A DNA stretch of 64,000 nt from a virus. Positions 266 through 55,302 of the stretch are shown piece after piece. The notes under the pieces were generated by a model. It saw nothing but the letters and a program-made list of their open reading frames with translations. It was not told the origin of the DNA and ran no database searches. Location: positions 1-64,000 of IMG/VR virus record IMGVR_UViG_3300043468_001414; one strand, written 5' to 3'. The position numbers and the translations under genes were made by a program. The first letter of the stretch is position 1, and each line of letters opens with the position of its first letter.

Positions 266-290
266 GTTGACCATTTCGCGGAATGGCATG
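266..290 (+). promoter_or_regulatory. GTTGAC-N15-18-ATG motif, first of 20 copies (putative late promoter / leaderless start)
   Basis: GTTGAC at 266, ATG at 288; the other copies are listed in findings. Confidence 0.7.
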
Positions 291-530
291 AGCAATGATT
301 GGATCGAGATTTACCGCGACTACACGCCTGTGGAGTTGGATGCGGAGATCACGAAATTGAAGCAGGAAGCCACGCTCTACACCGCCCAAAACATTGGGGA
401 CAAGGGATACCAGAAGTCTTTGGAAATGGTGCAGAACCGGCTCCATGCCGCCATCCGTGTGCGGAGCGAGCGGCGGGTGGTCGGCGGGCAAAACCCTTCT
501 TGGGGTGTCCCCGACTTTTCGGGGATGTAG
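288..530 (+). CDS. Putative head completion protein (lambda gpW-like)
   Basis: 80 aa; helix, short beta hairpin (TAQNIGDKGYQKS), helix; upstream of a lambda-type portal; start set by the GTTGAC motif. Confidence 0.5.
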   Translation: MSNDWIEIYRDYTPVELDAEITKLKQEATLYTAQNIGDKGYQKSLEMVQNRLHAAIRVRSERRVVGGQNPSWGVPDFSGM

Positions 531-546
531 GTTGGGGAGGCGTGGC

Positions 547-738
547 ATGAGGTGGTCGGAAAAACATCGCGCGACAGGGCGGGAAGTTTTCTTTCAAGAG
601 CTTCGTAAGAAATTCAAGCGTCCCGCGCCGCCTGCCATCGAAGAGCGCGTGGAGTCGAAGCCAGAGCCAAAAGTCCGACAGATGGGGCTGGCGGAATATA
701 TCCAGGCAAACAAGGCGCCGTCCGTGGCGCATTTATAG
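547..738 (+). CDS. Hypothetical protein
   Basis: ATG 547 fills the gap between flanking genes. Confidence 0.45.
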   Translation: MRWSEKHRATGREVFFQELRKKFKRPAPPAIEERVESKPEPKVRQMGLAEYIQANKAPSVAHL

Positions 739-744
739 TAAGTT

Positions 745-778
745 TAGCAAGTTTAGCTAAACCGCGATAAACTTGCTA
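745..778. promoter_or_regulatory. 11-bp perfect inverted repeat (operator or hairpin)
   Basis: TAGCAAGTTTA-N12-TAAACTTGCTA, intergenic, just upstream of GTTGAC at 791. Confidence 0.5.
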
Positions 779-813
779 TAAGGTCGGCCCGTTGACCCGT
801 CCGTAAAGGGGCG

Positions 814-1374
814 ATGAAGACTCGAATGGTCGTGGTGGATACGGAGACGGGGGGCTTGCGGGCGGATCGCCATGCGTTGCTCTCGATTGCGGCGGTGGAT
901 TCCTTGGGGGGTGATGCCTTTCATTCCTTGATCCGCCCCTCGGCGGATTGGCTGGTGGATGAGGAGGCTCTTAAGGTGAATGGGTTGTCGTTGGATTTTT
1001 TGCGGGATGCGGGTCGGGCGGAGTCGGTGGTGATGCAGGAATTTGTGATCTGGATGCAGGCGCGCAAGGGGGCGCTTTTTGCAGGGGCGAATCCGGCGTT
1101 TGATGCGGCATTTTTGGAAGCGGCGGGGAAGCGGTGCGGGGTCGCATGGCACGCGGGCCGTTCGCTCGACCTCCGCGCGGCGGCGTGGCTGGCCTACGAG
1201 ACGCAGGGGCTGGAGCTTCAAGTGGACAAGGAGGGGAATCCCAAGCTGTCGCTGGATAGCATCGCGGGGGCGTTGGGTTTGAGCCGTTCGGGGGATAAGC
1301 ATGATGCGCTGGAGGATGCCTTGCTGACGATGGCGTGCTTTAAGATGCTGTGCATGGACGGGGTGAAGGCATGA
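814..1374 (+). CDS. DEDDh 3'-5' exonuclease (DnaQ-like family)
   Basis: Exo I DTETGG, Exo II NPAFD, Exo III HDALEDA. Confidence 0.9.
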   Translation: MKTRMVVVDTETGGLRADRHALLSIAAVDSLGGDAFHSLIRPSADWLVDEEALKVNGLSLDFLRDAGRAESVVMQEFVIWMQARKGALFAGANPAFDAAFLEAAGKRCGVAWHAGRSLDLRAAAWLAYETQGLELQVDKEGNPKLSLDSIAGALGLSRSGDKHDALEDALLTMACFKMLCMDGVKA

Positions 1375-2188: not shown

Positions 2189-2211
2189 GGTTGACCCTTC
2201 CCTTTAAGGAT

Positions 2212-2367
2212 ATGAAGATCAATAAATCTCAAATCAGACAGATGTATTGGGAGTGGGTGCAAGAGAATGTCGAGGATTATCGTTGGACTACCTATATGAA
2301 CCCGCCCGATATTGTGGATATTATTTGCGACCTCGTTGAGAAGGCAACCTCCGAAACAGCGGAGTGA
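2212..2367 (+). CDS. Hypothetical protein
   Basis: GTTGAC 2190, then ATG 2212. Confidence 0.55.
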   Translation: MKINKSQIRQMYWEWVQENVEDYRWTTYMNPPDIVDIICDLVEKATSETAE

Positions 2368-2561: not shown

Positions 2562-2875
2562 ATTGCCCTGTCTGTGGCAAGGCGACAAGGGTGGTGGATA
2601 GTCGATCCCTTGAGGGCGAAGTCAAGCGCCGTCGAAAATGTCCTAAAGGCCATCTCTCCTACACGATGCAGGCTCCCGAGTATTTCGTGGCGGGCCGTGC
2701 GGCGGGCAGGCCCAAAGCGGCAGAAAAAAAACTCCCCAAGCCCAGGAAGAAGATCAAACCGAAGAAGGCCGCTCCCCTCCCCTACCCGCCTGCGATGAAA
2801 GAATGGGGGCTTGCCGTCACCAAGGACTCCCCGCTGTGGCTCAAGAGCATCGCCATGAAGCTGGACGAGCGTTGA
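2558..2875 (+). CDS. NrdR-like N-terminal zinc-ribbon protein (no ATP-cone)
   Basis: MNCPVCG..TRVVDSR...KRRRKC matches the NrdR N-terminus; Lys/Pro-rich tail. Confidence 0.7.
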   Translation: MNCPVCGKATRVVDSRSLEGEVKRRRKCPKGHLSYTMQAPEYFVAGRAAGRPKAAEKKLPKPRKKIKPKKAAPLPYPPAMKEWGLAVTKDSPLWLKSIAMKLDER

Positions 2876-2893
2876 CCGCCCCGCAATGAGCGT

Positions 2894-4618
2894 ATGAACT
2901 TTCTGGATCGCGCGGTTTCGTTTCTCAATCCCCAAGCAGGCGTTCAGCGGGCGTTTGCGCGGGAGAAGCTCAAGGCGTTTGGCTATGATGCGGCGCATCC
3001 TGGCACGGCGCGTGGCGGAAGTGGGGGTAGAAACAAAAATGCCTCGTCCGAGACTTGGCGGATGCAGCGGGATCGGGTGATCTTGATGTGGGATGCGCGG
3101 GATGTGGTGCGGAACTTTGCTCTCCTGCGTGGCATCGTGGCTCGCATCGTGCAGTATGTGGCGGATACCGTGCAGTATGTGTCGCAGACGGGGGATGAGG
3201 AAATCGACTCCCTTTACCAAGACTTCTTCCATCAATGGTGCGAGCGGGCCGACATCACGGGGCGTCACCGGCTCGGCGATCTGGTGAATATGATGGTGTG
3301 GGCGATGATCGTGGATGGCGATCACGGCTGGCATATTGTCTCGGTGGATGAGGATGGCAAGCAAGTGCCTAAAATTCAACCGATCGAAGCGGATCGAATC
3401 GGCGACCCGAACAACCCGATTGCCCCCGGCGAGGAGAGCAATATCGGCGGGATTTTAGTCGATCCTGTGGGCCGCCCGTTGAGCTACAAAATCTTCAAGC
3501 GCGACCGCCGCACGGCGATGTATTCGTTTGACCGCGAGATTCCTGCCGATCAGTTCATTCATATCTTTGACCCTCAAAGAGTGGATCAGTATCGCGGCGT
3601 CACAGCCTTGGCTACGGCGATTGCGCCCGCCCGCGACCTCTACGAGATTTACCAATTTGAAAAAACCGCCGCGAAGTGGCAAGCGGGCTATGCGGGATTC
3701 CTCAAGACGCCCGATCCGACTCGGGGCGATGGCGGCGTGAGTGCGTGGAATGGCACGACCATGGGAAGCAAGTCACAGACGAACATGGGCTTAATGGAAG
3801 TGGCCCCAGGGAAAATCCAAAAGCTCGCGGCAGGCGAAGACATCACTTTTGCGCCCGGCACGAATCGTCCAGGCGGGGCGTTCATGGCGCTGGTGCAGGT
3901 GTTGGTTCGCGAAATTTCGAGCGGGCTGAATATGCCCTACGGCTTCCTTTACGACATGACGGCTTTCAGCGGTCACACAGGGCGCATCGAGATCGCTCAG
4001 GCCATGCGCGGCATCCGCCGCCTGCAAAAGCTCGTCGGCGAGCGGGCGTTGAATCCCGTCCGTGATGCGGTGCTGGGCTATGGGATCGGAATTGGCGAGT
4101 TGCCGCCGCACCCTCAATGGCGCAATGGGCGGTGGGGCTTTGGGCGTTCGCTCACAGGGGACTACGGCCACGATACCACGGCAAATTTGCAGATGCTCCA
4201 AAGCGGGCTCGTCACCGCCTCGGATTTGATTTCCGAGACAGGACAGAGCTTCGAGGAGATAGTGCGCCGCAGCGCCAGCGAGGTGGCCTATATGCAGCGA
4301 GTCGCCACCGAGACAGGTGTGCCGATCGAACTCTTTAATCAACGCATCCCGAATCCGACCCAAGCCCTTGCCGCTATGGCCGAGCCGCCACAGCCGCCGC
4401 CGCCTGGCCTCGTTCCGCAGGGGCTGGATGTGAAGCCGCTCTTGGAGCTTCTGAAAAATGTGGGCGAAGGAATATTGGATCGCGAAAGCGCGATTATCAA
4501 TCTGATGAACCTGTATGGCGTGGAGCGCAATGCGGCGGAGAAGATGATCCCCGATGGGCCGGTGCAGAAGAAGGGATTGACCACGGAGGACACGGAGAAC
4601 ACGGAGGGGAAAAAATGA
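2894..4618 (+). CDS. Portal protein, lambda family
   Basis: 574 aa; YDAA, ARDVVRN, IEADRI, GILVD..GRP..Y, QYRGV motifs of lambda gpB-like portals. Confidence 0.9.
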   Translation: MNFLDRAVSFLNPQAGVQRAFAREKLKAFGYDAAHPGTARGGSGGRNKNASSETWRMQRDRVILMWDARDVVRNFALLRGIVARIVQYVADTVQYVSQTGDEEIDSLYQDFFHQWCERADITGRHRLGDLVNMMVWAMIVDGDHGWHIVSVDEDGKQVPKIQPIEADRIGDPNNPIAPGEESNIGGILVDPVGRPLSYKIFKRDRRTAMYSFDREIPADQFIHIFDPQRVDQYRGVTALATAIAPARDLYEIYQFEKTAAKWQAGYAGFLKTPDPTRGDGGVSAWNGTTMGSKSQTNMGLMEVAPGKIQKLAAGEDITFAPGTNRPGGAFMALVQVLVREISSGLNMPYGFLYDMTAFSGHTGRIEIAQAMRGIRRLQKLVGERALNPVRDAVLGYGIGIGELPPHPQWRNGRWGFGRSLTGDYGHDTTANLQMLQSGLVTASDLISETGQSFEEIVRRSASEVAYMQRVATETGVPIELFNQRIPNPTQALAAMAEPPQPPPPGLVPQGLDVKPLLELLKNVGEGILDRESAIINLMNLYGVERNAAEKMIPDGPVQKKGLTTEDTENTEGKK

Positions 4619-5472
4619 AGGAGTTGGCGCGGGGAGATTTTGCGATTCCGGCGCTTGGGAAGTTGCTGAAGGATCGTTCGTTTCTGGAGCAGTTTGCGAC
4701 CGGCAAGCGCGGGCCGAAGTTGGGGGATTTGAGGGCTTTTCGCTGGGGGCGGGTGGGGAAAAACCCAGTTTTTGCGCCGCAGGTAAGTTGGATTGGAACC
4801 GAATCTGTTATTCCCGCGATGAAGCAAAGCGGATTCGATATTCGCGCTGGCGGGAATCGCCAAGAAGCCCGCAATCACATCGCCAAAATGCTCCGCACGG
4901 GGCGTGCGGGCGGGGATGTGTATGAGCATATAGGCCGTTTTTTCTCCGTCAAGCTGCGCTTGCGCGAATTGGCGCGTGGTGACTATGCGATACCGGCGTT
5001 GGGGAAGATGCTCAAGGATCGTTCGTTTTTGGAGCAGTTTCTGACAGGCAAGCGCGGGCCGAAGATGGGGGATTTGTCTGTTGGGAAGATCTACCCAGGG
5101 GGTATGATTTCTGCGAGAAGACCTCCTAAAAAATCAGATTTCCAAATTGCAGGATGGACTAAGGGGCAGATGCTGGGCACTGAGCCGGTGGGGCCGCAGA
5201 ATGCCCGATGGAGAGATGCCCTTATCGAAGAAAGAATTCGCGGGAGAAAAGAAAACTTCAAAAAAAATAGGAGTTCCCTATCTGATGTTGCCAGGAATGT
5301 GCCGTTTCCTCTGGGTCTCACTGCCGAGGAGGCCGCTTGGGCTCAATCTGCTCGAACTGCTGCTCGAAATAATGCTGCCAAGATGTTGCGCAAGGGGCGG
5401 GCTGGCGGCGATGTGTATGAGGACATAGACCGCAAGTTTTTCGCTGTTGACCGCACGCCCTTCGGGGAATGA
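4615..5472 (+). CDS. Basic two-module protein with LRELA linker (putative head cargo)
   Basis: Internal duplication ELARGD[FY]AIPALGK...AKMLR.GRAGGDVYE; linker FSVKLRLRELA at 4942. Confidence 0.7.
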   Translation: MKELARGDFAIPALGKLLKDRSFLEQFATGKRGPKLGDLRAFRWGRVGKNPVFAPQVSWIGTESVIPAMKQSGFDIRAGGNRQEARNHIAKMLRTGRAGGDVYEHIGRFFSVKLRLRELARGDYAIPALGKMLKDRSFLEQFLTGKRGPKMGDLSVGKIYPGGMISARRPPKKSDFQIAGWTKGQMLGTEPVGPQNARWRDALIEERIRGRKENFKKNRSSLSDVARNVPFPLGLTAEEAAWAQSARTAARNNAAKMLRKGRAGGDVYEDIDRKFFAVDRTPFGE

Positions 5473-6061: not shown

Positions 6062-9000
6062 ATGAGCGAGTTCATCCGCAAGGCCATCCAGAAGAGTCTC
6101 CTTTTAAAAAAGAAACCGCACTTGGCTCCCAAGGCCACGCCGGTTACTGATCCTGCGAATTGGGAGGATGCGAAGTCCAAATTGCGGGAAATCCTTCGCG
6201 CTAATGGCGGTAAGCCAGGGCCGTGGCTAGATGACAATGGGCAGATGCGGTTGTTGACGCGGCGGTGGGTGGGGATGAAGCGTTTGAAAGAATTTCGATA
6301 TGATGCGCCTACTCCTCAAGAGGAGCGCCGAGGGTTGTTGCGGACGGGGCTTCTGGCTGGGGGCATTGCTGCTGCTGGAGGGCTGGCGGGCTTGGGGTTG
6401 TATAAGTCTGGGTTGTCTTCTTATGCTCGGCGCGCCGATCGTTTGGAAAAGCTTGTAAAGAAAATCCATGGGCAAAGGACGAATCTTGGCCAGAAAGCCA
6501 GGGATGCAGCGGCATCCCGCGGAGCGGCCAAGCAATCGGCTCAAGACGCTTCTATTTTCTCTCAAGGGCTTCGCGAGAAGCGTCAAGCAGCGGCAGCGGC
6601 TGTTGCGGCCAAGGCCGCGCAGGCGAGCGAGGCCGCCAATGTCGCGGCAGCAAAGAAATTTAATAAAACAGCGACTGCTTACTACGATCCCGCAAGTGCC
6701 GCGAATAAGCGGGTGGCTCGTGAGGCGTCTGTCGCCGCAAAGAAAAAGGCGCCAGTTTCCGCGCCCTCAGTTCCTAAAACAGAAATTCCCGAGGAAGTTT
6801 TTTCGGCGGTTCCAGAGGCTCCGATCAAGAAAGCTGCTGCGGCTCCGACTGAAAAATTTTCCAGTTGGGCTCAAGCTAAGGGAGCATTTAATAAAGGGAA
6901 AATCACTAAGGAGCAACTTGACAGCATGAAGTTTTCCTCGGCAGAAGTTCCTAAAGAATTTGATTTTCAGAATGACGAGGGGGGCATTCCCCTCACGGGG
7001 CGCGTGGCTCGAGATCGGTTCGTGAAGAAAATCCGTGATGAGGACTTGGATCGCCGCGATGCGAATATCCTGCGCGCTGGCGGCGCAGGGGCGTTGGCGG
7101 GGTTGATGTTCCGTGGCGGCCTTTCCCGAGGCAAGCGTGCATTGATCGGTGCTGGAGCGGGAGGATTGGGGGTAATTGGCATCCGCGCCCTTACGAATAA
7201 CGATCGAGACATTTACGGCGAGCGCAATCGCGGGAGCAAGCGCGCCGAGTTGATTCCTGCCGTAGGCGGACTCGGTGCGGCGGCATGGCTTGGGATGCGG
7301 CGCTTTAAAGGATTATCATCAAAGCTGCGCGGAACAAAATTTTTCGAGAAGCGGGAGCGCCGTGAGAAACGGGAGTTGAATCCCTATGTGGGGGCGGCTC
7401 TCTCGGGTGGCGTAAGCGGGGCGAGCCTCGGCGCGCTGTCATGGCTCAAGCGTGGCACCTCCGTGGCTTCGGCTGGAGCGACTGCTGCGAAGTTGGGTGC
7501 ACTCAGCGCCGGTATCGTCGGCGGCGGGGCCTTGATCGGTAGCCGCATCGTGGGTGATCCTCGCAAGGAAGAGGGAGCGCCGTTTACGAAGCGCGCGGCC
7601 TTGGGCGGGGCTATAAGCGGAGCCTTGGTAGGTGGCGCGGGTGGGCTTTTGCTTCGCAATACGAAGTTTATGAAGGATGCCGCCAAAACTTGGCGTCCGG
7701 CAAAGTGGATGACAGATGCTCCGGCTCTCGGGGCTGGCGCTCTTGGGGCTCTGGGCGGCGCGGTGATCGGTGGGGCGCAGGGGGCCGACGAGGGGCAGCA
7801 GGTTGATTCGATCCGCAACATCCGAAAGGACATAAAGCAAAAGAATTTTTCTCTTCGTGAGTTTCGCGCGTTGCCAGCGGTTGCCGTGAAGCAAGTTTGG
7901 AAGACTGATCCTGCGCTGCGGGCGGATTTTGCAAAACGGGTTGTCGCTAAAGTGCGGGCGGCTGTGGCTGCGAATAACAAGCAATACGGGGTAAAGGAGT
8001 TCCAAGTCTCTCCGCTCAATGTGGAGTCGATGGCCAAGACGAAAGAGCGTCGCGCCAGCGAGCGGGCTAATTTTTTGAAAGGCATTGGCGTAGCGGCAGC
8101 TGTGGGACTTGCAGGAGTTGGCGGGTATAGGGTGGGCCGTGTGATCAGTAAGGTGGATATCAATGCTGCCAAACGGGCGGCAGAAGCTGCTTCTGAGGAA
8201 GCGGGATGGCAAAAGCGTAGTGCTGAAAGATGGCGTAAAAGTTGGCAAGATGAGGCGTCGAGTGCTTCTCGTGCGCGGCAGGAGGCGTCGAGTGCTTCTC
8301 GTGCGCGGCAGGAGGCCCGTGCGAGTTCGTGGAGAGAAGAGAATCGCAAATGGGAAGAAGATTTTCGGAATAAGTGGGGTAATCCCCAAGGTTCCAGTGG
8401 TGCGAGTTCATCTGGACATGACAGTGATTACGCCAAGCGAAGCGCGGACGCTGCCAAGAAGTGGCGTCAAGAGCAGTCCAGATCCTCGGCTTCCTCCTCC
8501 AGCTATCGTGCTGAAAGCGGAACAGGATCGAAGGATTACACCCCCCCGCCTAGATCCAGGGCGAAGGGAACCGGCGAAGATCGCAACCCTCATGTAGGCA
8601 CTGCTAAGGAGGATGCTTGGGAGAAATGGCGCGCGATGGATCGCATGGCTAAGGAATCTAAAAATGAAGGCGAGCGCGAGACTGCTGCTCGCATGAGAGA
8701 TATGTGGAAAAAGAAACATAATTTGGCAAGAAAGCTGCGGGGGTTGAAGTTGTTTGGACGCGATGATCAGCCTCGTTATCGAGAAAGCAAGGTGTGGGCT
8801 GATCCGGTCATGGGTTGGATCCGAGGGGATGACTTGGTGGATAAGGATGGCAATAAATGGAGTCCTACCTCGCCGCAGCTTGTGAATGCGATGCACAATA
8901 AAGCGCGCGGCATTCGCGTGAATGTGCAGCGCGGGGCGGGGTTGGCGGGCGATACTTCGGCTGTATTGCAGGGTAAGGAGCGCGAGCGCGATGCCAGTGG

Positions 9001-15176: not shown

Positions 15177-15206
15177 TCTTTTCGTTGACGCGCCCCGGAA
15201 AGGGGC

Positions 15207-16517
15207 ATGGCAGACCTCAAAGAATTTTTCGCTCCCTTCGTTACCCAGAAGGTCGATCCAGCCAATGGGATTATCTACGGCGTCTCGGTGATCACCTCGG
15301 GCATCAAAGCCCGCGGGCATGATCTCGAAGTCGATAGCACCACCCTATCTCAAATTAAAGAATGTGCCGAAAAGCTCGGCACGGTTCCCGTGAAGTGGAA
15401 TCACCGCACCGGCGCGGATGCCGTGGCGGGGTATCTGGAAAATTTCCGCATCGAGGGCGGCAAACTCCTCGGCGATTGGCACCTTCTCAAAAGCCACTCG
15501 CAATTCGGCCAAGCGATCGAAATGGCCGAGCGCATGCCCCGCAATGTGGGCCTTTCCGCCGCCTTCATGGGCGAGGACGAAATGAGCGGCGGCGTCAAAA
15601 AGGCGCGCTGCTCAGAACTCATTTCCGTGGATCTCGTGGCGCAACCCGCCGCGAATCCTAACGGCCTCTTCGAGGCGAAGATGCCAGAGCAGTCCACGGA
15701 ACTCGCCTCGCAAGTTGACACAATAACCACAAACCGTATGGATCAAAATACCAACACAAACACCAACGCAGTGGCGGATGAGCCCTCCTTGAAGGATGTT
15801 CTCGCGGCCCTGAATCAACTCTCTGAGCAGGTCACTGCCCAGCAAGAGACTATCGCCGCCCTGCAAGGTGCGGAAAACAATGAGGCCGAGGATATCTCGA
15901 TCGAGGAGATCATGGATCTCACCGACGAAGACATCTTTGCGCTTCTCCAAGCCGGTGAAATTTCCGAAGAGGACGCCGCTGGGATCAAAGCCTACCAAGC
16001 CGAAGTCGTTGCCGCCAACGAGGCCGAGCAATCTGAAGGCCAAGGCGAAGACGAGCCAGCCGAAGGCGAACTCGCTGGCATTGGCGCCGGTTCGGATAGC
16101 TCCTCCACAGGATCTTCCGCCGAACTCTCCGCGCTTCAAAAACAAGTCAAGGAACTCAGCGCCCGTTTCGAGCGCGAAGACGCCGCGACTGAAAATGCCG
16201 AGATCGAACACTATTTCGCAACCATCGAGGGCAACCTCACCACCCTCGCCCAGGAGAAAGCTGCGCTCACCGAGTTCAGCGAGAAACTCCAAGCCGAGAA
16301 CGAGGCTCTCCGTCACGCCGTGAAAACTGGCACCCGCCCGCTGGCATTCAGCGCCGAGGGCCGCGCCACCACTGGCAGCCATGGCGAACTCCATGAGTTC
16401 GATAGCCGCGTGAAGAACCACACCGAATCGGGCAAGACCCGCGCACAAGCCGTGATGCTCGCCCACAAAGAAAATCCGGAAGCCCACCAAGATTGGATCC
16501 GGCAGCAAAGCAAATAA
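15207..16517 (+). CDS. Prohead protease fused to scaffolding protein
   Basis: N-terminal about 160 aa with VKWNH, GLS, SVDLV..PAA (HK97/herpes-fold protease pattern); acidic coiled-coil C-terminus; upstream of the capsid genes. Confidence 0.8.
   Translation: MADLKEFFAPFVTQKVDPANGIIYGVSVITSGIKARGHDLEVDSTTLSQIKECAEKLGTVPVKWNHRTGADAVAGYLENFRIEGGKLLGDWHLLKSHSQFGQAIEMAERMPRNVGLSAAFMGEDEMSGGVKKARCSELISVDLVAQPAANPNGLFEAKMPEQSTELASQVDTITTNRMDQNTNTNTNAVADEPSLKDVLAALNQLSEQVTAQQETIAALQGAENNEAEDISIEEIMDLTDEDIFALLQAGEISEEDAAGIKAYQAEVVAANEAEQSEGQGEDEPAEGELAGIGAGSDSSSTGSSAELSALQKQVKELSARFEREDAATENAEIEHYFATIEGNLTTLAQEKAALTEFSEKLQAENEALRHAVKTGTRPLAFSAEGRATTGSHGELHEFDSRVKNHTESGKTRAQAVMLAHKENPEAHQDWIRQQSK
15738..16517 (+). 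CDS. Nested in-frame scaffolding protein
   Basis: GTTGAC 15714, then in-frame ATG 15738 (MDQNTNTN) at the protease/coiled-coil boundary. Confidence 0.6.
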   Translation: MDQNTNTNTNAVADEPSLKDVLAALNQLSEQVTAQQETIAALQGAENNEAEDISIEEIMDLTDEDIFALLQAGEISEEDAAGIKAYQAEVVAANEAEQSEGQGEDEPAEGELAGIGAGSDSSSTGSSAELSALQKQVKELSARFEREDAATENAEIEHYFATIEGNLTTLAQEKAALTEFSEKLQAENEALRHAVKTGTRPLAFSAEGRATTGSHGELHEFDSRVKNHTESGKTRAQAVMLAHKENPEAHQDWIRQQSK

Positions 16518-20123: not shown

Positions 20124-20152
20124 AAGCGCCATCTCTCAAGGATGGCGTTTTT
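20124..20152 (+). terminator. Intrinsic terminator directly before a GTTGAC motif
   Basis: AAGCGCCATC-TCTCAAG-GATGGCGTTT followed by TT. Confidence 0.65.
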
Positions 20153-20173
20153 GTTGACCATGCGATTGGGGGC

Positions 20174-20578
20174 ATGGCGAATGTAAACAAGGTGATTCTC
20201 ATCGGGAATCTCACGCGGAATGTGGAGGTGAAGTTCACCTCCAAGGGAACGGCGGTGGCCTCGGCCTCTCTGGCGATCAACCGCAGCTACAAGACCGACC
20301 AGGGCGAGAAGCGGGAGGAAACGACTTTTGTGGATGTGGACTTCTGGGGGCGCGTGGCCGAGATCGTGGCGGAATACGCGAAGAAGGGCGATCCGCTCTA
20401 TGTCGAGGGGCGGCTCAAGCAGGAAAGCTGGGAGGAAAAAGAAACCGGCAAAAAGCGCACACGCTTGAAGATTGTGGGCGAAAACATTCAACTCTTAGGC
20501 TCTCGCTCGAAAGCCCCCTCCCCTGCCCCACAGGCAGGGGCGGAAGCAGGGCCATCCGAAGAGACGGAGCCATTTTAA
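20174..20578 (+). CDS. ssb: Single-stranded DNA-binding protein
   Basis: NKVILIGNLTR...KGDPLYVEGRL; C-terminal EETEPF. Confidence 0.95.
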   Translation: MANVNKVILIGNLTRNVEVKFTSKGTAVASASLAINRSYKTDQGEKREETTFVDVDFWGRVAEIVAEYAKKGDPLYVEGRLKQESWEEKETGKKRTRLKIVGENIQLLGSRSKAPSPAPQAGAEAGPSEETEPF

Positions 20579-20834: not shown

Positions 20835-20851
20835 CCATCGCGCCGGTGGCG

Positions 20852-21598: not shown

Positions 21599-21642
21599 CA
21601 GCGCAGAGATTGGGAAATGCAGTTTTAAAAATAGGAGAAATT

Positions 21643-22337: not shown

Positions 22338-22354
22338 AGCCGATAGTCTTTAAG

Positions 22355-22382: not shown

Positions 22383-22404
22383 GTTGACGCGCGGAGTTTT
22401 GGAA

Positions 22405-32251: not shown

Positions 32252-32268
32252 CGCTTGGCTTTTGAACG

Positions 32269-37006: not shown

Positions 37007-37029
37007 GCGTTGACGGGCAAGGATTGATT

Positions 37030-39171
37030 ATGTCCGATTGGATACGATTTGGTCAAAAAATAGTAGGCGCTACCAGCAGCCAGGGGCTCGGCCGCAGTGG
37101 GGCGATGAGTGGCAATGGGATGCGGATGGCTGTAAGTAGCGGGGGGCTTGTCAGGGTTTATTCTTACGCTGCGGGTAATTGGACGCAATTGGGCTCAGAT
37201 TTCGGGGGAACGTGGAACGCGACCGCGCGCCCGATGGCGCTCAATTTTTCAGGCGACCGTATAATTTTAGGAAAGCCTTCCTACTACGCGGGTAGTAGTA
37301 TTTGGCTTGGTGGCTCACTTCAGGTTTACATATATAACGGAAATTCCTGGGAGGAGTATGGACAGGAGATTTCTTGGGGTCAGAATCAGAACTCAGGTTT
37401 CGGAAATGCTGTTGCCATTAATGCCTCTGGAAATGTTATTGCCACTGGTGTTCCTGGCGCCGTGACAGGGCAGTTCTCCGCCGGGCTTGTTAAAATTTTT
37501 AAATGGGATGGGGCAAATTGGGCTCTTGAAAAAGATATTCAAGTAGCCGGATTGGATGTTTCTCTGAATGCCGCCGGCGATCGGTTGGCCGCCTCTGCTT
37601 CCAGTTCTACCCGAGTTTTTGACAAAAATACCAACAACTGGGGAGCGATAGGGCAAAACTTGATTTCTTCGAGTGCTCGAGTCCACTTAAGTGCGGATGG
37701 CGCGCGGTGCGCCATTGCAGACAGCGGCGATGTTCGTGTGTTTGGGTTGCTGGATGGGGCTTGGAGCCAATTAGGGTTTGTCATTCCCGTCGCGAATGCC
37801 CGGGCCAGCCTTAATTCTACGGGCGACAGGGTGATGGTGAAAGATGCGACCAAGGCTTCGGTTTACTCTTTCAATGGGGCAACTTGGAATAAGATCAGTC
37901 AAGATTTCCTATTGGATGGAGCAGGTGATCTGGCGTTCGGCGTTGCCATAAACTCTGACGGGGATCGAATTGCTGTTGCTTCGCCGAACTCGGATGTCTC
38001 TGGAGGTGATTTTGTTGCGGTTGATGCTGGAAGTATTGAAACTTATTTTTCAAATACCCCGGTGGCTCCTCCAGTCATTACAATCCCTGCGTCCTCGCTG
38101 ACCTACCCTGTAAATCAGAATTTCACTTACCAACTCGCTGCGACGAACGCGCCTACATCTTGGAGTTTGAATTCCGGGCAAGCGCTTCCTCCAGGCTTAA
38201 CGCTCAATCAAGGGACAGGGGAAATTTCGGGGGCCATTTCGCAGCTCGGCACTTGGCAAGTGGCTTTCTTGGCCAGCAACGCGGGAGGGGGTAGCTCACC
38301 TGGAGCCATTACTTTTATCGCTTATAATCCTGGGTCTAATCCTGGGTCTGGGGTTCCTCAAGGTAATAATCCAGTGATCAGCAAGGCGCAGGGGGTGGTG
38401 GCCTACGGGGTTGGGCAGAACTTTATTTTCCAGCTAACAGCGAGCGGCAACCCGAGAGCGTGGCGATTAGGCGCGGGCCAGTCGTTGCCGCCTGGGGTGG
38501 TTTTTAATCCTATCTCTGGCACGCTTTCTGGCGCTGGGGTGGCTCCTGGGGTGTGGGGGCTTACTTTCATTGCCACGAATAATAATGGCGATAGTGCGCC
38601 GCAGACTTTTACGATCGGGATTTACGATGTGGGTGGCTCGCGGGAATTTTCTAAAAAGGCGCTGATCAATCTCAAGACCCTTGCGGTGACATTTGAGGAT
38701 CCGGCGAGTGAGATCAAGGGGGCGAATAACGCTGTCGCCGCGGCAGCGGGCCAAGTGCGCTATGGGGATGATATTATTTTCAAGTTGGCGTTTACCGATG
38801 GAACGGGCACCGGGCAGGGGGCGAGTTTGATTTACAATGAGGTGGCGGCGCGGGTCGTGATGGCGCGCTTTTCGATGAAGGGTAATGAGACTGAGGCGGC
38901 GTTTTTTGTAACCCCTCCCCCGGCTTTTAAGAAAAGCGCGGAGTATTTGGCGGGGGTTTATTCTACAAATTATTACTTGAGTGCAAAAATTGCAGGAACT
39001 GCATTGCAATCGTATCTTGGGGATTTTGAGAGTGATTCCGGCACATTTGCAAATGCCTTGTGCGAGTTTGAGTTGGAATTTGAGCGTCCTGCTGCTGCCA
39101 GCGGGCCTTTGACGACTCGTGTGACCACGCAACCCTTCCTGCTTCGCGTAAGCAGGGATTTGATCTCGTAG
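37030..39171 (+). CDS. Tail protein: beta-propeller repeats plus putative Ig (He_PIG-like) domains
   Basis: Repeats FG..VAIN..G.RIA..W..LGQ; LPPGLTLN..TGEISG type motif twice. Confidence 0.7.
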   Translation: MSDWIRFGQKIVGATSSQGLGRSGAMSGNGMRMAVSSGGLVRVYSYAAGNWTQLGSDFGGTWNATARPMALNFSGDRIILGKPSYYAGSSIWLGGSLQVYIYNGNSWEEYGQEISWGQNQNSGFGNAVAINASGNVIATGVPGAVTGQFSAGLVKIFKWDGANWALEKDIQVAGLDVSLNAAGDRLAASASSSTRVFDKNTNNWGAIGQNLISSSARVHLSADGARCAIADSGDVRVFGLLDGAWSQLGFVIPVANARASLNSTGDRVMVKDATKASVYSFNGATWNKISQDFLLDGAGDLAFGVAINSDGDRIAVASPNSDVSGGDFVAVDAGSIETYFSNTPVAPPVITIPASSLTYPVNQNFTYQLAATNAPTSWSLNSGQALPPGLTLNQGTGEISGAISQLGTWQVAFLASNAGGGSSPGAITFIAYNPGSNPGSGVPQGNNPVISKAQGVVAYGVGQNFIFQLTASGNPRAWRLGAGQSLPPGVVFNPISGTLSGAGVAPGVWGLTFIATNNNGDSAPQTFTIGIYDVGGSREFSKKALINLKTLAVTFEDPASEIKGANNAVAAAAGQVRYGDDIIFKLAFTDGTGTGQGASLIYNEVAARVVMARFSMKGNETEAAFFVTPPPAFKKSAEYLAGVYSTNYYLSAKIAGTALQSYLGDFESDSGTFANALCEFELEFERPAAASGPLTTRVTTQPFLLRVSRDLIS

Positions 39172-40243: not shown

Positions 40244-40268
40244 TGTTGACAGGTCGGGATTGGTTGAT

Positions 40269-40667
40269 ATGAGCGCATTCTCTGATTACCTTGAAAATAA
40301 AGTGTTGGATCATCTGATGAGCCGCACGACCTATACGGCTCCGGCCTCCGTTTATTTCTCCCTGTATACTTCCGCCCCATCGGATACGGGGGGTGGTGCG
40401 GAAGTCAATGGCGGCGGGTATGCTCGGGTTGGTGTAACGAATGATGTGGCAAACTGGCCACTGGCTACTGGTGGAGTAAAGAAAAACGCCAACACCATCA
40501 CTTTCCCCGAAGCCACTGCGGCTTGGGGGACGGTTGTAGCCATCGGGATTCATGACGCGGCGTCTGGTGGGAATCTTTTATTTTGGACGACGATTACTTC
40601 GCGATCCGTGGTGCAGGGCGATATTCCTCGATTCAATGCCCTGGGCGTCTCGATCAGTTTGAATTAA
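40269..40667 (+). CDS. Conserved phage tail/baseplate protein
   Basis: SDYLENKVLDH...EVNGGGYAR...WGTV..IGIHDAASGGNLL. Confidence 0.7.
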   Translation: MSAFSDYLENKVLDHLMSRTTYTAPASVYFSLYTSAPSDTGGGAEVNGGGYARVGVTNDVANWPLATGGVKKNANTITFPEATAAWGTVVAIGIHDAASGGNLLFWTTITSRSVVQGDIPRFNALGVSISLN

Positions 40668-45898: not shown

Positions 45899-47436
45899 AG
45901 GTTTATACTTATTATAGTGAAATTAAGTTTTCCGCTCAATCAGACTTAATTTCCGTTTGGAAGCAAAGCTGGGAGAAGCGGGGGTTCGAGCCGGTTGTGC
46001 TGAGTGTCGCGGATGCCAAGCGACACCCTTATTATAAATGCTTCCAAGAAGTTGTTCGTAGCCAGAGTGAGCAAATGGGCTTTGCGCTGAGTGCTTACGG
46101 TGAGGCGTGTTGGATGCGTTGGCTGGCTTATGCTTCGCTGGGGGAGAGTGGGCTATTTATTGTCTGTGATTATGATGTGATGAATCGGAACTTCCCGGTT
46201 CCCGAGAAATTACCGGAGGGCTTGGTTTTTTGGGATGGGGCGTGCCCGAGCGTGGCCTCAGGGAATTCCGAAGATTTTTTGAGGTTTTGTAAATCAGTAG
46301 AATTCATGGATGTAGAGTGTTTTTTGGAAGCTAATAAAAAACCCATATCTCACTTCCACGATCAAGAGTTTTTATGTTGCCCTCAGTGCGCAGGGTTGAA
46401 ACATTCACGGATGCGGCCCGCAGAAGTTGTTTCGTTATATTCCGAGAAAGTGGATGCGCCATTGGTGCATGTGTCTCACAGTTCTATTCCTGGCTTTAAC
46501 GAGGCGAAGCGTTTAGCAGCTGCTTGCGAGGTGCTGCAATATGAGGGGGCGGCATGGGGTGGATGTTTGCAGGGCCTCGCGCGGACGGTGATTCGGATGG
46601 ATCTCCTGGCGAGGCGTCCTGTGCCTATTTTTTTACATATCCCGCGATGTGGTGGGACATTTGTCTTGGCGACAATGATGGCCTCTTCAGTTTTTTTAAA
46701 ACAGAGTGGAGGCGGCGGGGTTATCAAGCAAATTTTAGTGAATGAGGAGGGGGTTATCTTTAGGGTTATTGCGTCTTGCGAGGATATTGGCTCTGATGCT
46801 GATGATAGGCATAAACTCACGGTGGATCTTAGTGGTTTTTTTGAGATTCTCCCGAAGTTGGAATTTGTATTTTCGGTCGTTATCGAACCAGCGGGGGTTT
46901 CTCGATTCGCTGGGGGGCTTTTTCACGAAATTTGCGATCGCATTCAAAGAAAGCCAATGTTTTTTACCTGCCTCCGCGATCCTTTTGAGCGGGAGGCCTC
47001 GAAGTTCGCTTATTTGATAACTAAATTGAGCGAAGATTCATTCTGCATTGAAGGCGAAGAAGAGCGCGTGGCTAATGCATTAACTGGCATGGAGTTTGAA
47101 GAGTATATTCAATCGGACAGGCTTTCGGATAGTTGGCTGATCCGGACATTATTGCCGCAGGCGGCGCATATTTGCGAAAATGAAATTGATGAGGCTTGCC
47201 AGCTTCTTGCGGATTTTAGGATTTGCGGGCTCTCGGGCCTTTCGGAGCATTTGGGCAGAGTTTTAAAGGATTGCTATGGCGAGATCGCTGTGCCGCTGGG
47301 TTTTGAGATCAACAGCAACAGCTCGGGAGGGGTCGCGTTTGATAATATCTCTGAAAAAGCTAGGGCGGCGTTTCTTGAAAAAACGAGGCCGGACTACGAG
47401 TTGTATTGGCGATTGATAGCTCGGGCTGAGTGTTGA
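45895..47436 (+). CDS. Glycosyltransferase-sulfotransferase fusion
   Basis: N half RWLAY...CDYDV (DxD); C half FLHIPRCGGT (5'-PSB loop) and LRDPFER..S (3'-PB motif); GTGA overlap start. Confidence 0.7.
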   Translation: MKVYTYYSEIKFSAQSDLISVWKQSWEKRGFEPVVLSVADAKRHPYYKCFQEVVRSQSEQMGFALSAYGEACWMRWLAYASLGESGLFIVCDYDVMNRNFPVPEKLPEGLVFWDGACPSVASGNSEDFLRFCKSVEFMDVECFLEANKKPISHFHDQEFLCCPQCAGLKHSRMRPAEVVSLYSEKVDAPLVHVSHSSIPGFNEAKRLAAACEVLQYEGAAWGGCLQGLARTVIRMDLLARRPVPIFLHIPRCGGTFVLATMMASSVFLKQSGGGGVIKQILVNEEGVIFRVIASCEDIGSDADDRHKLTVDLSGFFEILPKLEFVFSVVIEPAGVSRFAGGLFHEICDRIQRKPMFFTCLRDPFEREASKFAYLITKLSEDSFCIEGEEERVANALTGMEFEEYIQSDRLSDSWLIRTLLPQAAHICENEIDEACQLLADFRICGLSGLSEHLGRVLKDCYGEIAVPLGFEINSNSSGGVAFDNISEKARAAFLEKTRPDYELYWRLIARAEC

Positions 47437-47455
47437 CGAATGATGGGAGGTGGGT

Positions 47456-48727
47456 ATGCGACTCTATGTAGATCTTGATACTCTGGTTGTTTCGGATTTC
47501 CGAAACTCTGGGGCGGCGGCTGGTTTATCGGCAAAAAGGAGTGATCGGTTTTCTGTAGAAGTTCGGTTTGTAAGTCAAGGTGTCATTAAGGAGTTGCCAT
47601 CAGGGGCTTCCGGGCGGATTACTCTTAAAAAGACTACAGAATTTTCTAGTTACCCGGTGGCATGGTCTCCGGCGTGGCGCAAGGTGGGGCATGGCTTGGG
47701 GGCTTATTATGTTTTCCGCCTTAATCTCCATACTCAACAGGTTGTGGATCAATTTTTGTCTCTGCAAGGCGAATTGGCTGCCGTGACTTTTGCCATGGAG
47801 ATTCAATGGGAATACCGCGGAATGCGGAGATCGAGCCGCGCGGTCACATTTGTGGTGGAAAATGATTATGTGCGCCTTGAAGATCGGGATGAGCCGCCGA
47901 TCGCTATTTTTGCTGGTCCTCCCATTGTGGCCTCGGGTCAAAGCTTTGTCGGTAAGGTCGGGGCTTCGTTTTTTGAGAGAATCGTTCTTGGGGAGACTAT
48001 GGATCGGCCGGTTTCAACATGGTCCGCCTCGGGGCTTCCAGCCGGGTTGAGTCTTAATGTTGCGCAGGGCATCGTGTCGGGAGACCCTTCAGCGATGGGC
48101 AGCTTTACCGCGATGATTTCTGCAAGTGGCGATGGAGGGGCTGGTGTTGCTCAAGGGGTGGCGTTTTCTATTTTGCCGGGCGTTCCTGGCATTACAAATA
48201 CAAGCTTTACGGGCAAGGTGGGCGCGGCATTTTTAGCTGCGCCGACTGTCAATGATCCCGTTAATCGACCTGTTACTGCATGGAGCGCGACCGGCTTGCC
48301 AAGTTGGGCCGGCATTGATGCCACGAGCGGCGTCATAGCCAGTATAACCCCCGTCGGGTATCCCCTACTCACTCCAGAGCATGTCGCTACCTATGATGTT
48401 ACATTAAGGGCCTCTGGGCCTGGCGGTGAGGGCGCTAAGGTTGTTACGATTATAATCGGAGTGGGGGCTCCTAGTATTGATGCAGGGCAAAGTTTTCTTG
48501 GCTATGTCGGGCAGCCGTTTACTGTGACTCCTGCGATTTATGACGCCCTTGATCGGCCTGCGACTTCGTGGAGCGCGGTGGGATTGCCTGCGGGGCTTTC
48601 CATTAATTCTGCAACTGGGCAGATTGCTGGGACGCCGGAGGTTGCTGGGAGCGTGGACGCTGAATTAACGGCGACGGGACCAGGGGGCAGCAATACTCGT
48701 AGTGTTTCCATTTCTATCATGCCTTAA
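47456..48727 (+). CDS. Baseplate-anchor-like N-domain plus three Ig-like domains
   Basis: KRSDRFSVEVRF..; W.A.GLP.GL type motif three times. Confidence 0.65.
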   Translation: MRLYVDLDTLVVSDFRNSGAAAGLSAKRSDRFSVEVRFVSQGVIKELPSGASGRITLKKTTEFSSYPVAWSPAWRKVGHGLGAYYVFRLNLHTQQVVDQFLSLQGELAAVTFAMEIQWEYRGMRRSSRAVTFVVENDYVRLEDRDEPPIAIFAGPPIVASGQSFVGKVGASFFERIVLGETMDRPVSTWSASGLPAGLSLNVAQGIVSGDPSAMGSFTAMISASGDGGAGVAQGVAFSILPGVPGITNTSFTGKVGAAFLAAPTVNDPVNRPVTAWSATGLPSWAGIDATSGVIASITPVGYPLLTPEHVATYDVTLRASGPGGEGAKVVTIIIGVGAPSIDAGQSFLGYVGQPFTVTPAIYDALDRPATSWSAVGLPAGLSINSATGQIAGTPEVAGSVDAELTATGPGGSNTRSVSISIMP

Positions 48728-48751
48728 AGTTGACGCTCGGGCTTGGGGCGT

Positions 48752-49216
48752 ATGCGGATCGCGATCAATACCGAGACGAGGCAGGTGGTGACTTGGGCGA
48801 ATGAGCCATTGACTTCCATGGAGTTGACTCGCGGCGACAAATTTCCGCTGGAGATCAAGTTTATCGCCGGGGCGGGATATGTGGAGCTTCCGGATGGCGC
48901 GGCGGTGAGGGTGGTTTTCAAGCAGATCGGGCAGTATGGCGGGCAGATTTTAGCGGGAGCAGTGGAGTGGACGAAGGCTGGCGCGGCCTCGAAGGCTGTT
49001 TACACCGTGCTGCTCGATATGAATACGATCCAACTCAATACGGCGCTCGGCGCGGACACTCCCTCGATCGACTTGGCGGTGGAGATCGAGTGGCGGTATA
49101 CGCAAGGCGCTGTCGCGGTGCGCCAGACGGCGACTCCAGTGCCGGTGACGCTTTCCAATGATTACATTCGCGGTGCCGAGGGGAGTCCTGTCGATGCTGT
49201 GGCTTTATTGGCCTGA
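48752..49216 (+). CDS. Baseplate-anchor-like (BppU-type) protein
   Basis: TRGDKFPLEIKF...EIEW...V...NDY; close paralog of the next gene. Confidence 0.55.
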   Translation: MRIAINTETRQVVTWANEPLTSMELTRGDKFPLEIKFIAGAGYVELPDGAAVRVVFKQIGQYGGQILAGAVEWTKAGAASKAVYTVLLDMNTIQLNTALGADTPSIDLAVEIEWRYTQGAVAVRQTATPVPVTLSNDYIRGAEGSPVDAVALLA

Positions 49217-53017: not shown

Positions 53018-53025
53018 TTTAGCTT

Positions 53026-53325
53026 ATGTTAAACTTTCCAGATTCACCAACAAACGGGTATATTTATCCACCAGAAACCGAAGCAGCGATTGAAGGTCGT
53101 CGCTGGAAATGGGACGCCGCTGGCGGCGTGTGGCTAAACTACTCGGCGTCGCAGCCCTACACACTGCAAATCTACAATGTAACAAACCTTCAGTCAGAGC
53201 TTGATAGCAAGATAGAGAAGCAGTCTGCCGATACAACTCCTGTAAATGCCATTCGGTGTCTTACGCAAGCAGAATACGACGGCACAACGAAAGACCCGAA
53301 CACAATTTATTTCATAAAACAATAA
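53026..53325 (+). CDS. Small tail fibre-associated protein
   Basis: FPDSPT..W.WD; LTQAEYD...KDPNTIYFI. Confidence 0.6.
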   Translation: MLNFPDSPTNGYIYPPETEAAIEGRRWKWDAAGGVWLNYSASQPYTLQIYNVTNLQSELDSKIEKQSADTTPVNAIRCLTQAEYDGTTKDPNTIYFIKQ

Positions 53326-53326
53326 C

Positions 53327-55069
53327 ATGCCTACTGTTGTAAAAGCCTATTTAGGAACAACTCCGCTTTTTACGGGAGACTCTGTATGGGTTCGTCCCTC
53401 CGATTGGCTCGCCCTGCCCTCTGCACAAGCTAATTCTGTAAAAATACTACATGCTGTTTTTGACCAAACTGAAAACTATGTAGTGATTAAAATGGTGACT
53501 TCCGACAGTTCTGCCTACATCATAAATTGGGGGGACGGGAATACCACAACAGCGTTAAGCAATACAAATATCACATACAATTACAGCTACAGTTCTTCTG
53601 GATTGGATGGCACTCTCTCTGCTCGCGGATACAAGCAAGCCATAATTACCATAACACCGGTAGGGTCGGCAACATTTACACTTTGCGATTTATCTCAAAA
53701 GATTACCTCCCCGTCAGGTATGCAAATGTATGCTACAGGCTTGCTTGATGTTAATGTAAATCTTCCGAATCTTATAGCTGGGCAAAGGTTGCTTATCGGT
53801 TCGTCAACAGTTCGCCATTCTTACCTTGAAAGGGTTTATATCGCTTCGTGGGGGCTTATCAACAATATCACCGCTTTGTTCCAGCATTGTCCCGCGCTTC
53901 AATCTCTGAATGAGACAGAGTGGAACATGTCGAACATAACCACCGTTTCAAGCCTGTTTTTTGAGTGCAGCGGTATAAAGGTGATCGACGGGTCTAATTG
54001 GGACACGGCAAAAATCACCACTTTTACGGACATGTTTCGTGCTTGTCAAACTATCCAAAAGGTGAGTTGTGCAAACTGGGTCACATCGACAACCACAGGC
54101 ATCGGAAATATGTTTTTCGGTTGCACGGCCCTTACGGATATAGATGTCGGGAACTGGAATACTGCTAACTGCACAACTTTTGCTTATCTTTTTTCGGCAT
54201 GCCGCTCCTTGACCAGTATAAATGTTCGTAATTGGAACACCGCAAAAGTCACCACGATCAACAACATGTTTGAGAACTGCAATGCCGTGCAAGAAGTGGA
54301 TATTTCTCTTTGGAGCCTGCCGTTATGCACTAATGTGCAGGCGGCTTTTATAAACTGCCATACTTTGAGAAAGTTGGGGCCGTGCAACTTTAATGCCGTA
54401 ACAAATCTTACAGCAACATTCAACAACTGTCGCTCTCTCACTTCATGCACTATATCGTGGCTGAGGGCTACCACAGACTTTACGAGTTGCCGATTGCCTA
54501 AAGCTGCGCTGGATACTGTTTTTTCAAATCTAACTGGCGGTGCAGCATCGAGAACTATAACCATTACTGGAAACTACGGCGCGGTTGCTGCGGTCAGCAA
54601 AACTACTTGCGGAACCACAGCAGGATCAAAAACTGTAACGCAGTCAAACACTTCGAGCTTGCAAGTTGGGATGCAAGTTTTGGGGACGGGGGTGACCACT
54701 GCTGTAGCGGTTACTTTTCAAGACGCGGGGGACACCGTTACACGGACAGCCCACGGACTAGACAATGGAACCATTGTTTCATTTTCAACTATAACTAGCA
54801 CGACAGGGATAGCAATATACGCCCAGTATTATGTAATCAACGCCACTGCCGACACATTTCAGTTGTCCGCAACTTCTGGCGGGGCAGCTATCGCCCTAAC
54901 TACGAATGGTAGCGGGAATATGCTTTACCCTGCCTACATTACCGCAATTACCACGAACTCATCTTTCCAGATGAGTGCTCCAGCGTCGGCTACTGGAAGT
55001 GTGACGCTCACGGCTAGAATTTTGAGCACTTTCCCTGCGACATCAAAAGGATGGACTGTAACAGGATAA
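53327..55069 (+). CDS. BspA/DUF285-like leucine-rich repeat protein (putative receptor binding)
   Basis: About 26-aa repeats W.T..vT....MF..C..L..iD. Confidence 0.75.
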   Translation: MPTVVKAYLGTTPLFTGDSVWVRPSDWLALPSAQANSVKILHAVFDQTENYVVIKMVTSDSSAYIINWGDGNTTTALSNTNITYNYSYSSSGLDGTLSARGYKQAIITITPVGSATFTLCDLSQKITSPSGMQMYATGLLDVNVNLPNLIAGQRLLIGSSTVRHSYLERVYIASWGLINNITALFQHCPALQSLNETEWNMSNITTVSSLFFECSGIKVIDGSNWDTAKITTFTDMFRACQTIQKVSCANWVTSTTTGIGNMFFGCTALTDIDVGNWNTANCTTFAYLFSACRSLTSINVRNWNTAKVTTINNMFENCNAVQEVDISLWSLPLCTNVQAAFINCHTLRKLGPCNFNAVTNLTATFNNCRSLTSCTISWLRATTDFTSCRLPKAALDTVFSNLTGGAASRTITITGNYGAVAAVSKTTCGTTAGSKTVTQSNTSSLQVGMQVLGTGVTTAVAVTFQDAGDTVTRTAHGLDNGTIVSFSTITSTTGIAIYAQYYVINATADTFQLSATSGGAAIALTTNGSGNMLYPAYITAITTNSSFQMSAPASATGSVTLTARILSTFPATSKGWTVTG

Positions 55070-55073
55070 TTTT

Positions 55074-55274
55074 ATGGATGATACATCAGGATTTTACAAA
55101 TTGGATGAGGGGCAACTTTTATACGCGCCTAACTTCGTAATCAGCGCGCTTTATGAGTTAAGCAAAGAAACAAAAAACGAATACAGCTACCCCGTAGATG
55201 GGTGGAGTTGGTTTGACGGCGAGGAAGAAGCGAGAGTCGCTCTACAGTTGCGGGCTCCATTTAGTGTGGGTTGA
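55074..55274 (+). CDS. Small fibre-associated protein
   Basis: GFYK...LLYAPNFV...YPVDGW.WFD. Confidence 0.55.
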   Translation: MDDTSGFYKLDEGQLLYAPNFVISALYELSKETKNEYSYPVDGWSWFDGEEEARVALQLRAPFSVG

Positions 55275-55302
55275 CCCGGATTATATTAAGAAATGAAATA
55301 CT

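Follow-up and report, generated by a model that had tools for sequence, protein, structure and literature searches.

The hexamer GTTGAC, followed 15 to 18 nucleotides (nt) further on by an ATG, recurs at gene starts in positions 1 to 64,000 of the IMG/VR virus record IMGVR_UViG_3300043468_001414, a stretch that we refer to as the window. This association with starts is real and far beyond chance, and the hexamer, here called the box, is on balance probably the core of a lineage-specific late promoter that would give leaderless or near-leaderless mRNAs. In an exhaustive count of the window, the + strand had 23 copies of GTTGAC and the - strand one (25 and 2 in the whole 96.7-kb genome). The pattern GTTGAC-N15-18-ATG occurred 20 times on the + strand and never on the - strand, while 100 dinucleotide shuffles averaged 1.33 matches and gave at most 6, and all 20 elements reported in an initial annotation of this DNA are present. 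That annotation had found two + strand copies without such an ATG; there are three (36574, 48823 and 52853, the second of which had been overlooked), and these are likely chance copies. It had also seen no copy in the 57-64 kb region, and in fact there is none anywhere between 55,276 and 64,000. The fraction of copies with an ATG at 15-18 nt, 20/23 or 0.87, is the highest among hexamers with at least 8 copies in the first 55.3 kb, and for the next-best hexamers that do not overlap GTTGAC it is at most 0.42. One-mismatch variants have an ATG at the right distance in 26 cases, of which only one or two lie at plausible gene starts (e.g., ATTGAC before 50730), thus GTTGAC is used in its exact form. 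Of the 20 ATGs, 18 share the frame of a long open reading frame (ORF), 17 as its likely start and one, at 15738, as an in-frame internal start, and the other two (21617 and 55293) open ORFs of 3 and 10 codons just before the real starts at 21643 and 55303. The elements, the terminators that adjoin two of them and the three copies without an ATG are listed below, with the number of nucleotides between box and ATG given as N.

266..290 (+): box, N16, ATG 288 of an 80-aa ORF (288-530); ORF 10-270 ends at the TGA of the box
791..816 (+): box, N17, ATG 814 of a 186-aa RNase T-like exonuclease (814-1374)
2190..2214 (+): box, N16, ATG 2212 of a 51-aa ORF
2871..2896 (+): box, N17, ATG 2894 of the portal protein (2894-4618); the upstream ORF has its stop codon in the TGA of the box
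5446..5471 (+): box, N17, ATG 5469 of an 87-aa ORF; the upstream ORF 4615-5472 reads across the box
6253..6277 (+): box, N16, ATG 6275 of an 1152-aa protein without family match
15184..15209 (+): box, N17, ATG 15207 of a 436-aa ORF upstream of the capsid gene; box retained in 5/5 relatives compared
15714..15740 (+): box within ORF 15207-16517, N18, in-frame ATG 15738 of a nested 259-aa product; present in all relatives, with N18 or N24
20125..20152 (+): intrinsic-terminator-like hairpin and T-run, directly abutting the box at 20153
20153..20176 (+): box, N15, ATG 20174 of a single-strand DNA-binding protein (20174-20578)
20830..20854 (+): box, N16, ATG 20852 of a 108-aa head-closure-like protein
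21594..21619 (+): box, N17, ATG 21617 of a 3-codon ORF; the real start, of a 112-aa protein, is at 21643 after AGGAG
22352..22382 (+): strong terminator hairpin with T8, directly abutting the box at 22383
22383..22407 (+): box, N16, ATG 22405 of a 95-aa ORF
23497..23520 (+): box, N15, ATG 23518 of a 1412-aa protein of tape-measure size without family match; kept in 5/5 relatives
29998..30021 (+): box, N15, ATG 30019 of a 232-aa ORF
32247..32271 (+): box, N16, ATG 32269 of a 1017-aa protein
37009..37032 (+): box, N15, ATG 37030 of a 713-aa protein
40245..40271 (+): box, N18, ATG 40269 of a 132-aa ORF
47432..47458 (+): box, N18, ATG 47456 of a 423-aa protein with an immunoglobulin-like (He_PIG) domain; kept in 5/5 relatives
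48729..48754 (+): box, N17, ATG 48752 of a 154-aa ORF
55270..55295 (+): box, N17, ATG 55293 of a 10-codon ORF; a 105-aa membrane (holin-like) protein starts at 55303
36574..36579, 48823-48828 and 52853-52858 (+): GTTGAC inside a gene, without an ATG at N15-18

The source record is a 96,663-bp virus genome with 113-bp direct terminal repeats, of which the window covers the first 64 kb. All genes from position 1 to ~70 kb are located on the + strand, and this block contains the genes for the portal, a lambda-E-like capsid protein and large tail proteins, a lysis cassette at ~55.3-57 kb, a primase and an ATPase at 62-66 kb, and terS/terL at 67-69.5 kb. The genes between 70.3 and 96.5 kb are located on the - strand and code for, among others, an SNF2 helicase, a C5 methylase, ThiF/E2-like proteins, and small helix-turn-helix (HTH) and ribbon-helix-helix (RHH) proteins. 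Going by gene content only, we infer that the genes served by boxes are late, and those on the - strand are presumed to be early. None of the 49 called genes on the - strand is preceded by a box, which is consistent with a class-specific phage signal. Beyond the window there are two further + strand copies, one at 77718 (N16) before an orphan + strand gene and the other at 67036, 27 nt before terS.

GenBank phages yielded no DNA match and no close relative (portal identity at most 29%), and a prophage search of GTDB genomes gave only matches in Oscillospiraceae, at 24% identity. With the portal protein as query, 14 related viral contigs were recovered. In each of the five related records that we compared, the gene strand bears 9-17 copies of the pattern and the other strand none, and a reversed control pattern occurs only 0-2 times. 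Relatives with 61-73% capsid identity, including the complete 66.6-kb genome G009, retain GTTGAC before late genes, and at orthologous junctions the hexamer is unchanged, the upstream flank can no longer be aligned, and the sequence of the spacer differs. Eleven boxes of the genome under study (G000) have an ortholog that keeps the box, and five are kept in all five compared genomes; the box at 266, for example, is retained in G001, G009, and G007. Boxes are also gained and lost, as seen at the portal gene, which lacks a box in G009 and G007.

To describe the anatomy of the element, we aligned 67 box instances from four genomes. TTGAC was invariant in all 67, so that a TTGACA-like -35 hexamer is present in each, and the 30 nt upstream of the box showed no conservation, leaving the hexamer as the sole conserved element. 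The spacing to the ATG was N15 in 10 instances, N16 in 22, N17 in 26, and N18 in 9. In the spacer, G accounts for 40% of the bases and A for 15%, the share of G being raised at positions -4 to -2, and position -1 is a pyrimidine in 72% of the cases (T in 34/67, C in 14/67), followed by the A at +1. The interval 16-18 bp after the box, where a -10 hexamer with A at its second and T at its sixth position would be expected, falls on or after the ATG, and T at +5 occurs in 0/67 instances. Likewise, a TANNNT element 6-7 nt before the start codon was not found, A at -11 being present in 7/67 instances and the positions -12 to -7 being rich in G and C. Since A at -11 is rare and T at +5 never occurs, there is no TATAAT-like hexamer either before or over the ATG. 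The initial annotation had noted that the ATG occupies the place of the -10 hexamer. The sequence excludes the canonical sigma70 geometry, which would put the transcription start 12-16 nt inside the ORF and leave the start codon out of the transcript. That the box-associated ATG is the true start follows from the portal protein, which is conserved from M1 while the upstream DNA diverges.

The same logos were used to assess other known arrangements. A canonical sigma70 promoter was rejected as there is no -10 element, and the TANNNT geometry of leaderless genes was rejected on the logos as well. A sigma54 (-24/-12) promoter, defined by GG and GC doublets 10 bp apart, was rejected because there is no conserved GG upstream of the box, the highest upstream frequencies being 46% G at -14 and 42% G at -8. 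The Bacteroidota -33/-7 promoter (TTTG/TAnnTTTG) was rejected too, as the 35 copies of TAnnTTTG in the genome lie inside genes and not before early or late units. The spacer does not form a special RNA hairpin: the mean minimum free energy was -3.86 versus -3.56 for shuffled sequences, with 31/67 instances more stable than their own shuffles, and there was no excess RNA structure from box to ATG compared to shuffles. Restriction-site avoidance (GTYRAC) was rejected as an explanation for the pattern, since it cannot yield strand specificity. Upstream of genes with a box, the fraction of A is 0.17 and that of G 0.40, compared to 0.35 and 0.20 for the other genes, and a Shine-Dalgarno (SD) core is present in 13 of the 108 genes without a box, thus SD use is very low genome-wide. 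In view of these differences in upstream composition and SD picture, starts with a box and other starts appear to be mechanistically different. A few genes carry a textbook AGGAG, such as the one starting at 21643.

Several findings lead us to favor a DNA-level promoter over a translation signal, although the action on DNA is deduced from sequence. The boxes at 20153 and 22383 directly abut the T-runs of strong hairpin terminators (-14 and -21 kcal/mol, respectively), as the initial annotation had pointed out, and the ortholog of the latter in G001 and G003 shows the same terminator-box layout with a different stem sequence. Before the gene for the 112-aa protein (21643), 43 nt separate the box from the real start in the window, compared to 22 nt in G002 and 32 nt in both G001 and G003. 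This interval is filled by SD-like or A-rich leaders, and the relatives have no ATG at N15-18. For terS, the distances are N27 and N25. A translation signal tied to the start codon should not survive such drift in distance, whereas a promoter merely gains a leader, which argues for a promoter. The orphan + strand gene 77740-78528, located within the - strand block, provides a further case. Here GTTGAC-N16-ATG lies in a 28-bp gap between divergent start codons, and the ortholog in G009, which is 34% identical, has aTTGAC-N16-ATG in a 31-bp gap, so that in two distant phages the box is the only signal in a gap of 28-31 bp. The product of this gene is a 262-aa protein without a family match. The lack of excess RNA structure noted above also favors DNA. 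In late genes, moreover, the reverse complement of the box, GTCAAC, has 8 copies where synonymous-codon shuffles give 26.7, and non-functional sense copies of GTTGAC are depleted too, which is only suggestive as support for action on DNA. In 77 units, the TGA of the box was the stop codon of the upstream ORF in 29, the box was located in a non-coding gap in 31, and the upstream ORF read through the box in 17.

The host of the phage is probably a member of the Verrucomicrobiota, judging from the organism names on homologous sequences, which are only Verrucomicrobiota and Chthoniobacter. Homologs of a 244-aa early protein (76822-77556, - strand) were found in Chthoniobacter sp. and in Verrucomicrobiae metagenome-assembled genomes (MAGs), and homologs of terL in one Verrucomicrobiota MAG and two Chthoniobacter contigs, one of which (129.5 kb) is the same contig that bears the homolog of the early protein. 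A Bacteroidota host, our first guess based on the A-rich, SD-poor leaders, was dropped since there are no Bacteroidota-type promoters and the homologs name Verrucomicrobiota. Cappable-seq data for Akkermansia muciniphila show canonical -35/-10 signals and ~10% leaderless start sites (PMC4782308). Judging from this, translation of leaderless mRNAs is within the capacity of the host phylum, whose ordinary promoter geometry would differ from that of the phage element.

In the mechanism that we propose, the GTTGAC box would position RNA polymerase such that transcription starts ~16-17 bp downstream, in most units at the A of the start codon. A start at this A would suit the small variation in spacing, the pyrimidine at -1 that precedes the A, and the upstream sequence that is not A-rich; a pyrimidine-purine pair is the usual start-site preference, as has been seen in microbiome Cappable-seq (PMC4782308). 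Served in this way would be the genes for structural proteins and lysis, and also the few genes for DNA and RNA enzymes that lie among them. Many short-range promoters would drive these genes, and other late genes would be expressed via A-rich leaders or coupling. The box may be bound by region 4 of a host sigma factor, or by a sigma4-like protein, in a geometry altered by an early phage product. A host component as the reader is a guess, made because the word equals the -35 consensus of sigma-70 and does not vary among diverged phages. A more specific version, in which host sigma region 4, freed or repositioned by a phage product, reads the -35 word at -22 to -17, transcription starts on the AUG without a -10 element, and Verrucomicrobiota phages widely run their late genes as leaderless mRNAs, is put forward tentatively and may well prove wrong.

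In such a compressed promoter scheme, an initiator-like tRNA carried by the phage might assist leaderless expression. At 17954-18027 (+), shortly behind the capsid gene, there is a tRNA(CAU) gene that is conserved in four genomes. The tRNA has several initiator-like traits (a 1:72 mismatch, G2:C71, C3:G70, A73, A11:U24, and 2/3 anticodon-stem G:C pairs) together with an unusual C33, and could be an extra initiator tRNA that helps leaderless translation. It is followed by a hairpin and T-run, and the ATG of the next gene, at 18083, adjoins the T-run.

The genome was also inspected for candidate factors that could act on the box. The only sigma-related match is a 156-aa LuxR/GerE (sigma region 4-like) HTH protein, encoded at 71379-71849 (-) at the distal end of the - strand block, which is 73% identical in G001. 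The best-conserved early protein without known function is the 244-aa protein mentioned above, which is 65% identical in G009. Its AlphaFold model (predicted local distance difference test score 76.5) gave no match by Foldseek or VIA-align (best Z 4.5), nor did a PDB sequence search with this protein. A gp55-type sigma family was not detected in Pfam/PHROG scans of 66 non-structural proteins, which a diverged factor could escape.

Several observations weigh against a late promoter that starts transcription at the ATG. The initial annotation had proposed a phage-specific promoter with the box near -22 and a start at or near the ATG; the comparative evidence prefers this over an RNA element, while in all these phages the position of the transcript start is derived from sequence alone. 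To our knowledge, a hexamer at -22 to -17 with a G+C-rich stretch up to +1 fits no melting mode of bacterial RNA polymerase. A six-frame search of the phage did not find sigma region 2 (Sigma70_r2), Pfam/PHROG scans of the 66 non-structural and the larger proteins found no RNA polymerase, and a scan for DxDxD gave no polymerase-like motif. The LuxR/GerE protein was rejected as the reader, as it was not found in the complete genome of G009, which does have the box. In several relatives, the internal-start box is located at N24 behind AAGGAG, which fits a start nearer the box. Terminators that are not followed by a box also exist, therefore read-through must occur. Finally, the depletion of GTCAAC ranks only 159 among 4096 hexamers, with restriction-type avoidance dominating the tail.

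An account that we consider unlikely is that the box itself is a -10-like single element, comparable to TATAAATA for T4 gp55, read by an unrecognised phage or alternative host sigma factor, with transcription starting ~7 nt after the box and leaders of 8-11 nt in which the G-run aids ribosome binding. This would agree with the presence of only one conserved element without a second box, with the frequent G at N6-N8 after the box, and with the N24 internal-start boxes, whose AAGGAG, 9 nt before the ATG, would be in the transcript only if this starts near the box. GTTG is, moreover, a -10 word of some extracytoplasmic function (ECF) sigma factors. Yet the logo of the 67 instances shows no ECF-type -35 element upstream, sigma region 2 is not found encoded in any of the six frames, and the narrow spacing between box and ATG is left without a reason. 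The G-run, at 1-3 nt from the ATG, is also too near for SD pairing, and SD cores are scarce, as mentioned above (13/108 other genes).

We think it quite improbable that the signal is read in RNA, i.e., that GUUGAC in a polycistronic late mRNA is bound by the ribosome or a protein and leads to initiation, or termination-reinitiation, at an AUG 15-18 nt further on, comparable to viral reinitiation motifs. The fixed distance to the AUG, the overlap of the TGA with the upstream stop codon in 29/77 units, the invariance of the hexamer across diverged phages, which suits a host reader such as the ribosome, and the rare use of SD sequences that the host seems to show would all be explained. What speaks against it is that the box is retained where the real start has shifted 22-43 nt away, that 31/77 boxes lie in non-coding gaps, some right behind strong terminators, and that the orphan gene, in its antisense orientation, has no upstream + strand gene; in addition, there is no RNA structure signal and the identity with the DNA -35 word would be a coincidence. 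Even a repeat of ~20 copies per genome, placed at junctions in one orientation, might be an operator for a phage regulator that blocks or licenses incoming transcription, like the oriented 'stoperators' of cluster A mycobacteriophages, and the LuxR/GerE HTH protein and several RHH proteins are encoded. We regard this as very improbable, since a conserved word of six bases is short for an operator, a fixed distance of 15-18 nt to a start codon would not be required, the GerE-like protein was not found in G009, and the orphan gene would still require a promoter within its 28-bp gap.

Some further features of this genome deserve mention. A box stands before the start of the 436-aa ORF 15207-16517 (+) and a second one before its internal ATG 15738, and this arrangement is conserved in all relatives. 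The two-box layout predicts a nested C-terminal product, as in scaffold/protease gene pairs. The gene for the single-strand DNA-binding protein (20174-20578, +) is located amid the head-tail module, after a terminator and headed by a box. At the right end of the genome (96494-96617), 48-bp tandem repeats continue into the terminal repeat (1-113 in the window), each containing a sigma70-like TTAACA-N16-CATATT on the + strand that is directed into the left end. The tetramer GTAC is absent from the whole genome (0 in 1-96663, versus ~366 expected); it occurs 0-1 times in G001-G003, 65 times in G009, and 32 times in G007. GGGCCC, GCCGGC, CCGCGG, GGCGCC, and CGGCCG are strongly depleted as well, and together this looks like restriction-site avoidance.

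A literature search on the motif itself returned nothing useful. We compared the box with known phage signals. The T4 late promoter, TATAAATA, is read by gp55 together with gp33 and the gp45 clamp. Late promoters of phiKZ and AR9 consist of TATG and AACA-N6-TA/G, respectively (PMC5312081). In these phages, as with the box, a single short and strict element marks the late class and there is no -35/-10 pair. Their elements, however, are AT-rich and located at -13 to -6 or at the start site, the length of the leader is not fixed, and they are read by a phage sigma factor or phage RNA polymerase, none of which was found in the phage with the box. The word is the same as the sigma-70 -35 element TTGACA, but the box is ~13 bp too near the start codon, there is no -10 element at 16-18 bp, and a normal transcript would begin inside the gene. 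The start-associated sequences (SAS) and extended SAS (ESAS) of cluster K mycobacteriophages consist of 13 bp at a distance of 3-7 bp from the start, have an AGGAG SD core, and are found at non-structural genes only (PMC3203893). The function of SAS is not known; like the box, they are asymmetric and occur in one orientation, are tied to start codons with a preference for ATG, sometimes hold the upstream stop codon, and are lineage-specific. In contrast, the box is a 6-bp word at 15-18 bp from the ATG that lacks an SD core and is found for the most part in the structural half of the genome.

The nearest functional analogue is formed by the late promoters of Thermus phages. Phage Lalka27a has dense late promoters that give leaderless mRNAs, with a -10 hexamer TAGGGT (TANNNT type) 6 bp before the start and a C at -25 (bioRxiv 10.64898/2026.04.20.719267), and YS40 is cited in that preprint as likewise a Thermus phage with such late promoters. 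Both systems share gene-by-gene, phage-specific late promoters with the initiator codon at the mRNA's 5' end, which for the box we infer from its position, and a distinct consensus that implies a re-programmed host RNA polymerase. They differ in that the Thermus phages have a -10 element, whereas here there is only a -35-type TTGAC at about -22 to -17 and no -10-like element. As the box matches none of the compared definitions in full, it is filed as a variant of phage-specific late promoters that is a member of none of these families.

If the boxes do mark transcription start sites, their geometry lies beyond current models of bacterial RNA polymerase: one -35-type word would lie ~20 bp upstream, a -10 element would be missing, and the region to be melted would be rich in G+C. 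It would also mean that a large and environmentally common group of phages runs most of its late units as leaderless mRNAs, in a host phylum that has hardly been studied for transcription and translation signals. For hundreds of uncultured genomes, the box offers a precise means to mark late transcription units and true start codons, and it could supply compact expression cassettes for Verrucomicrobia.

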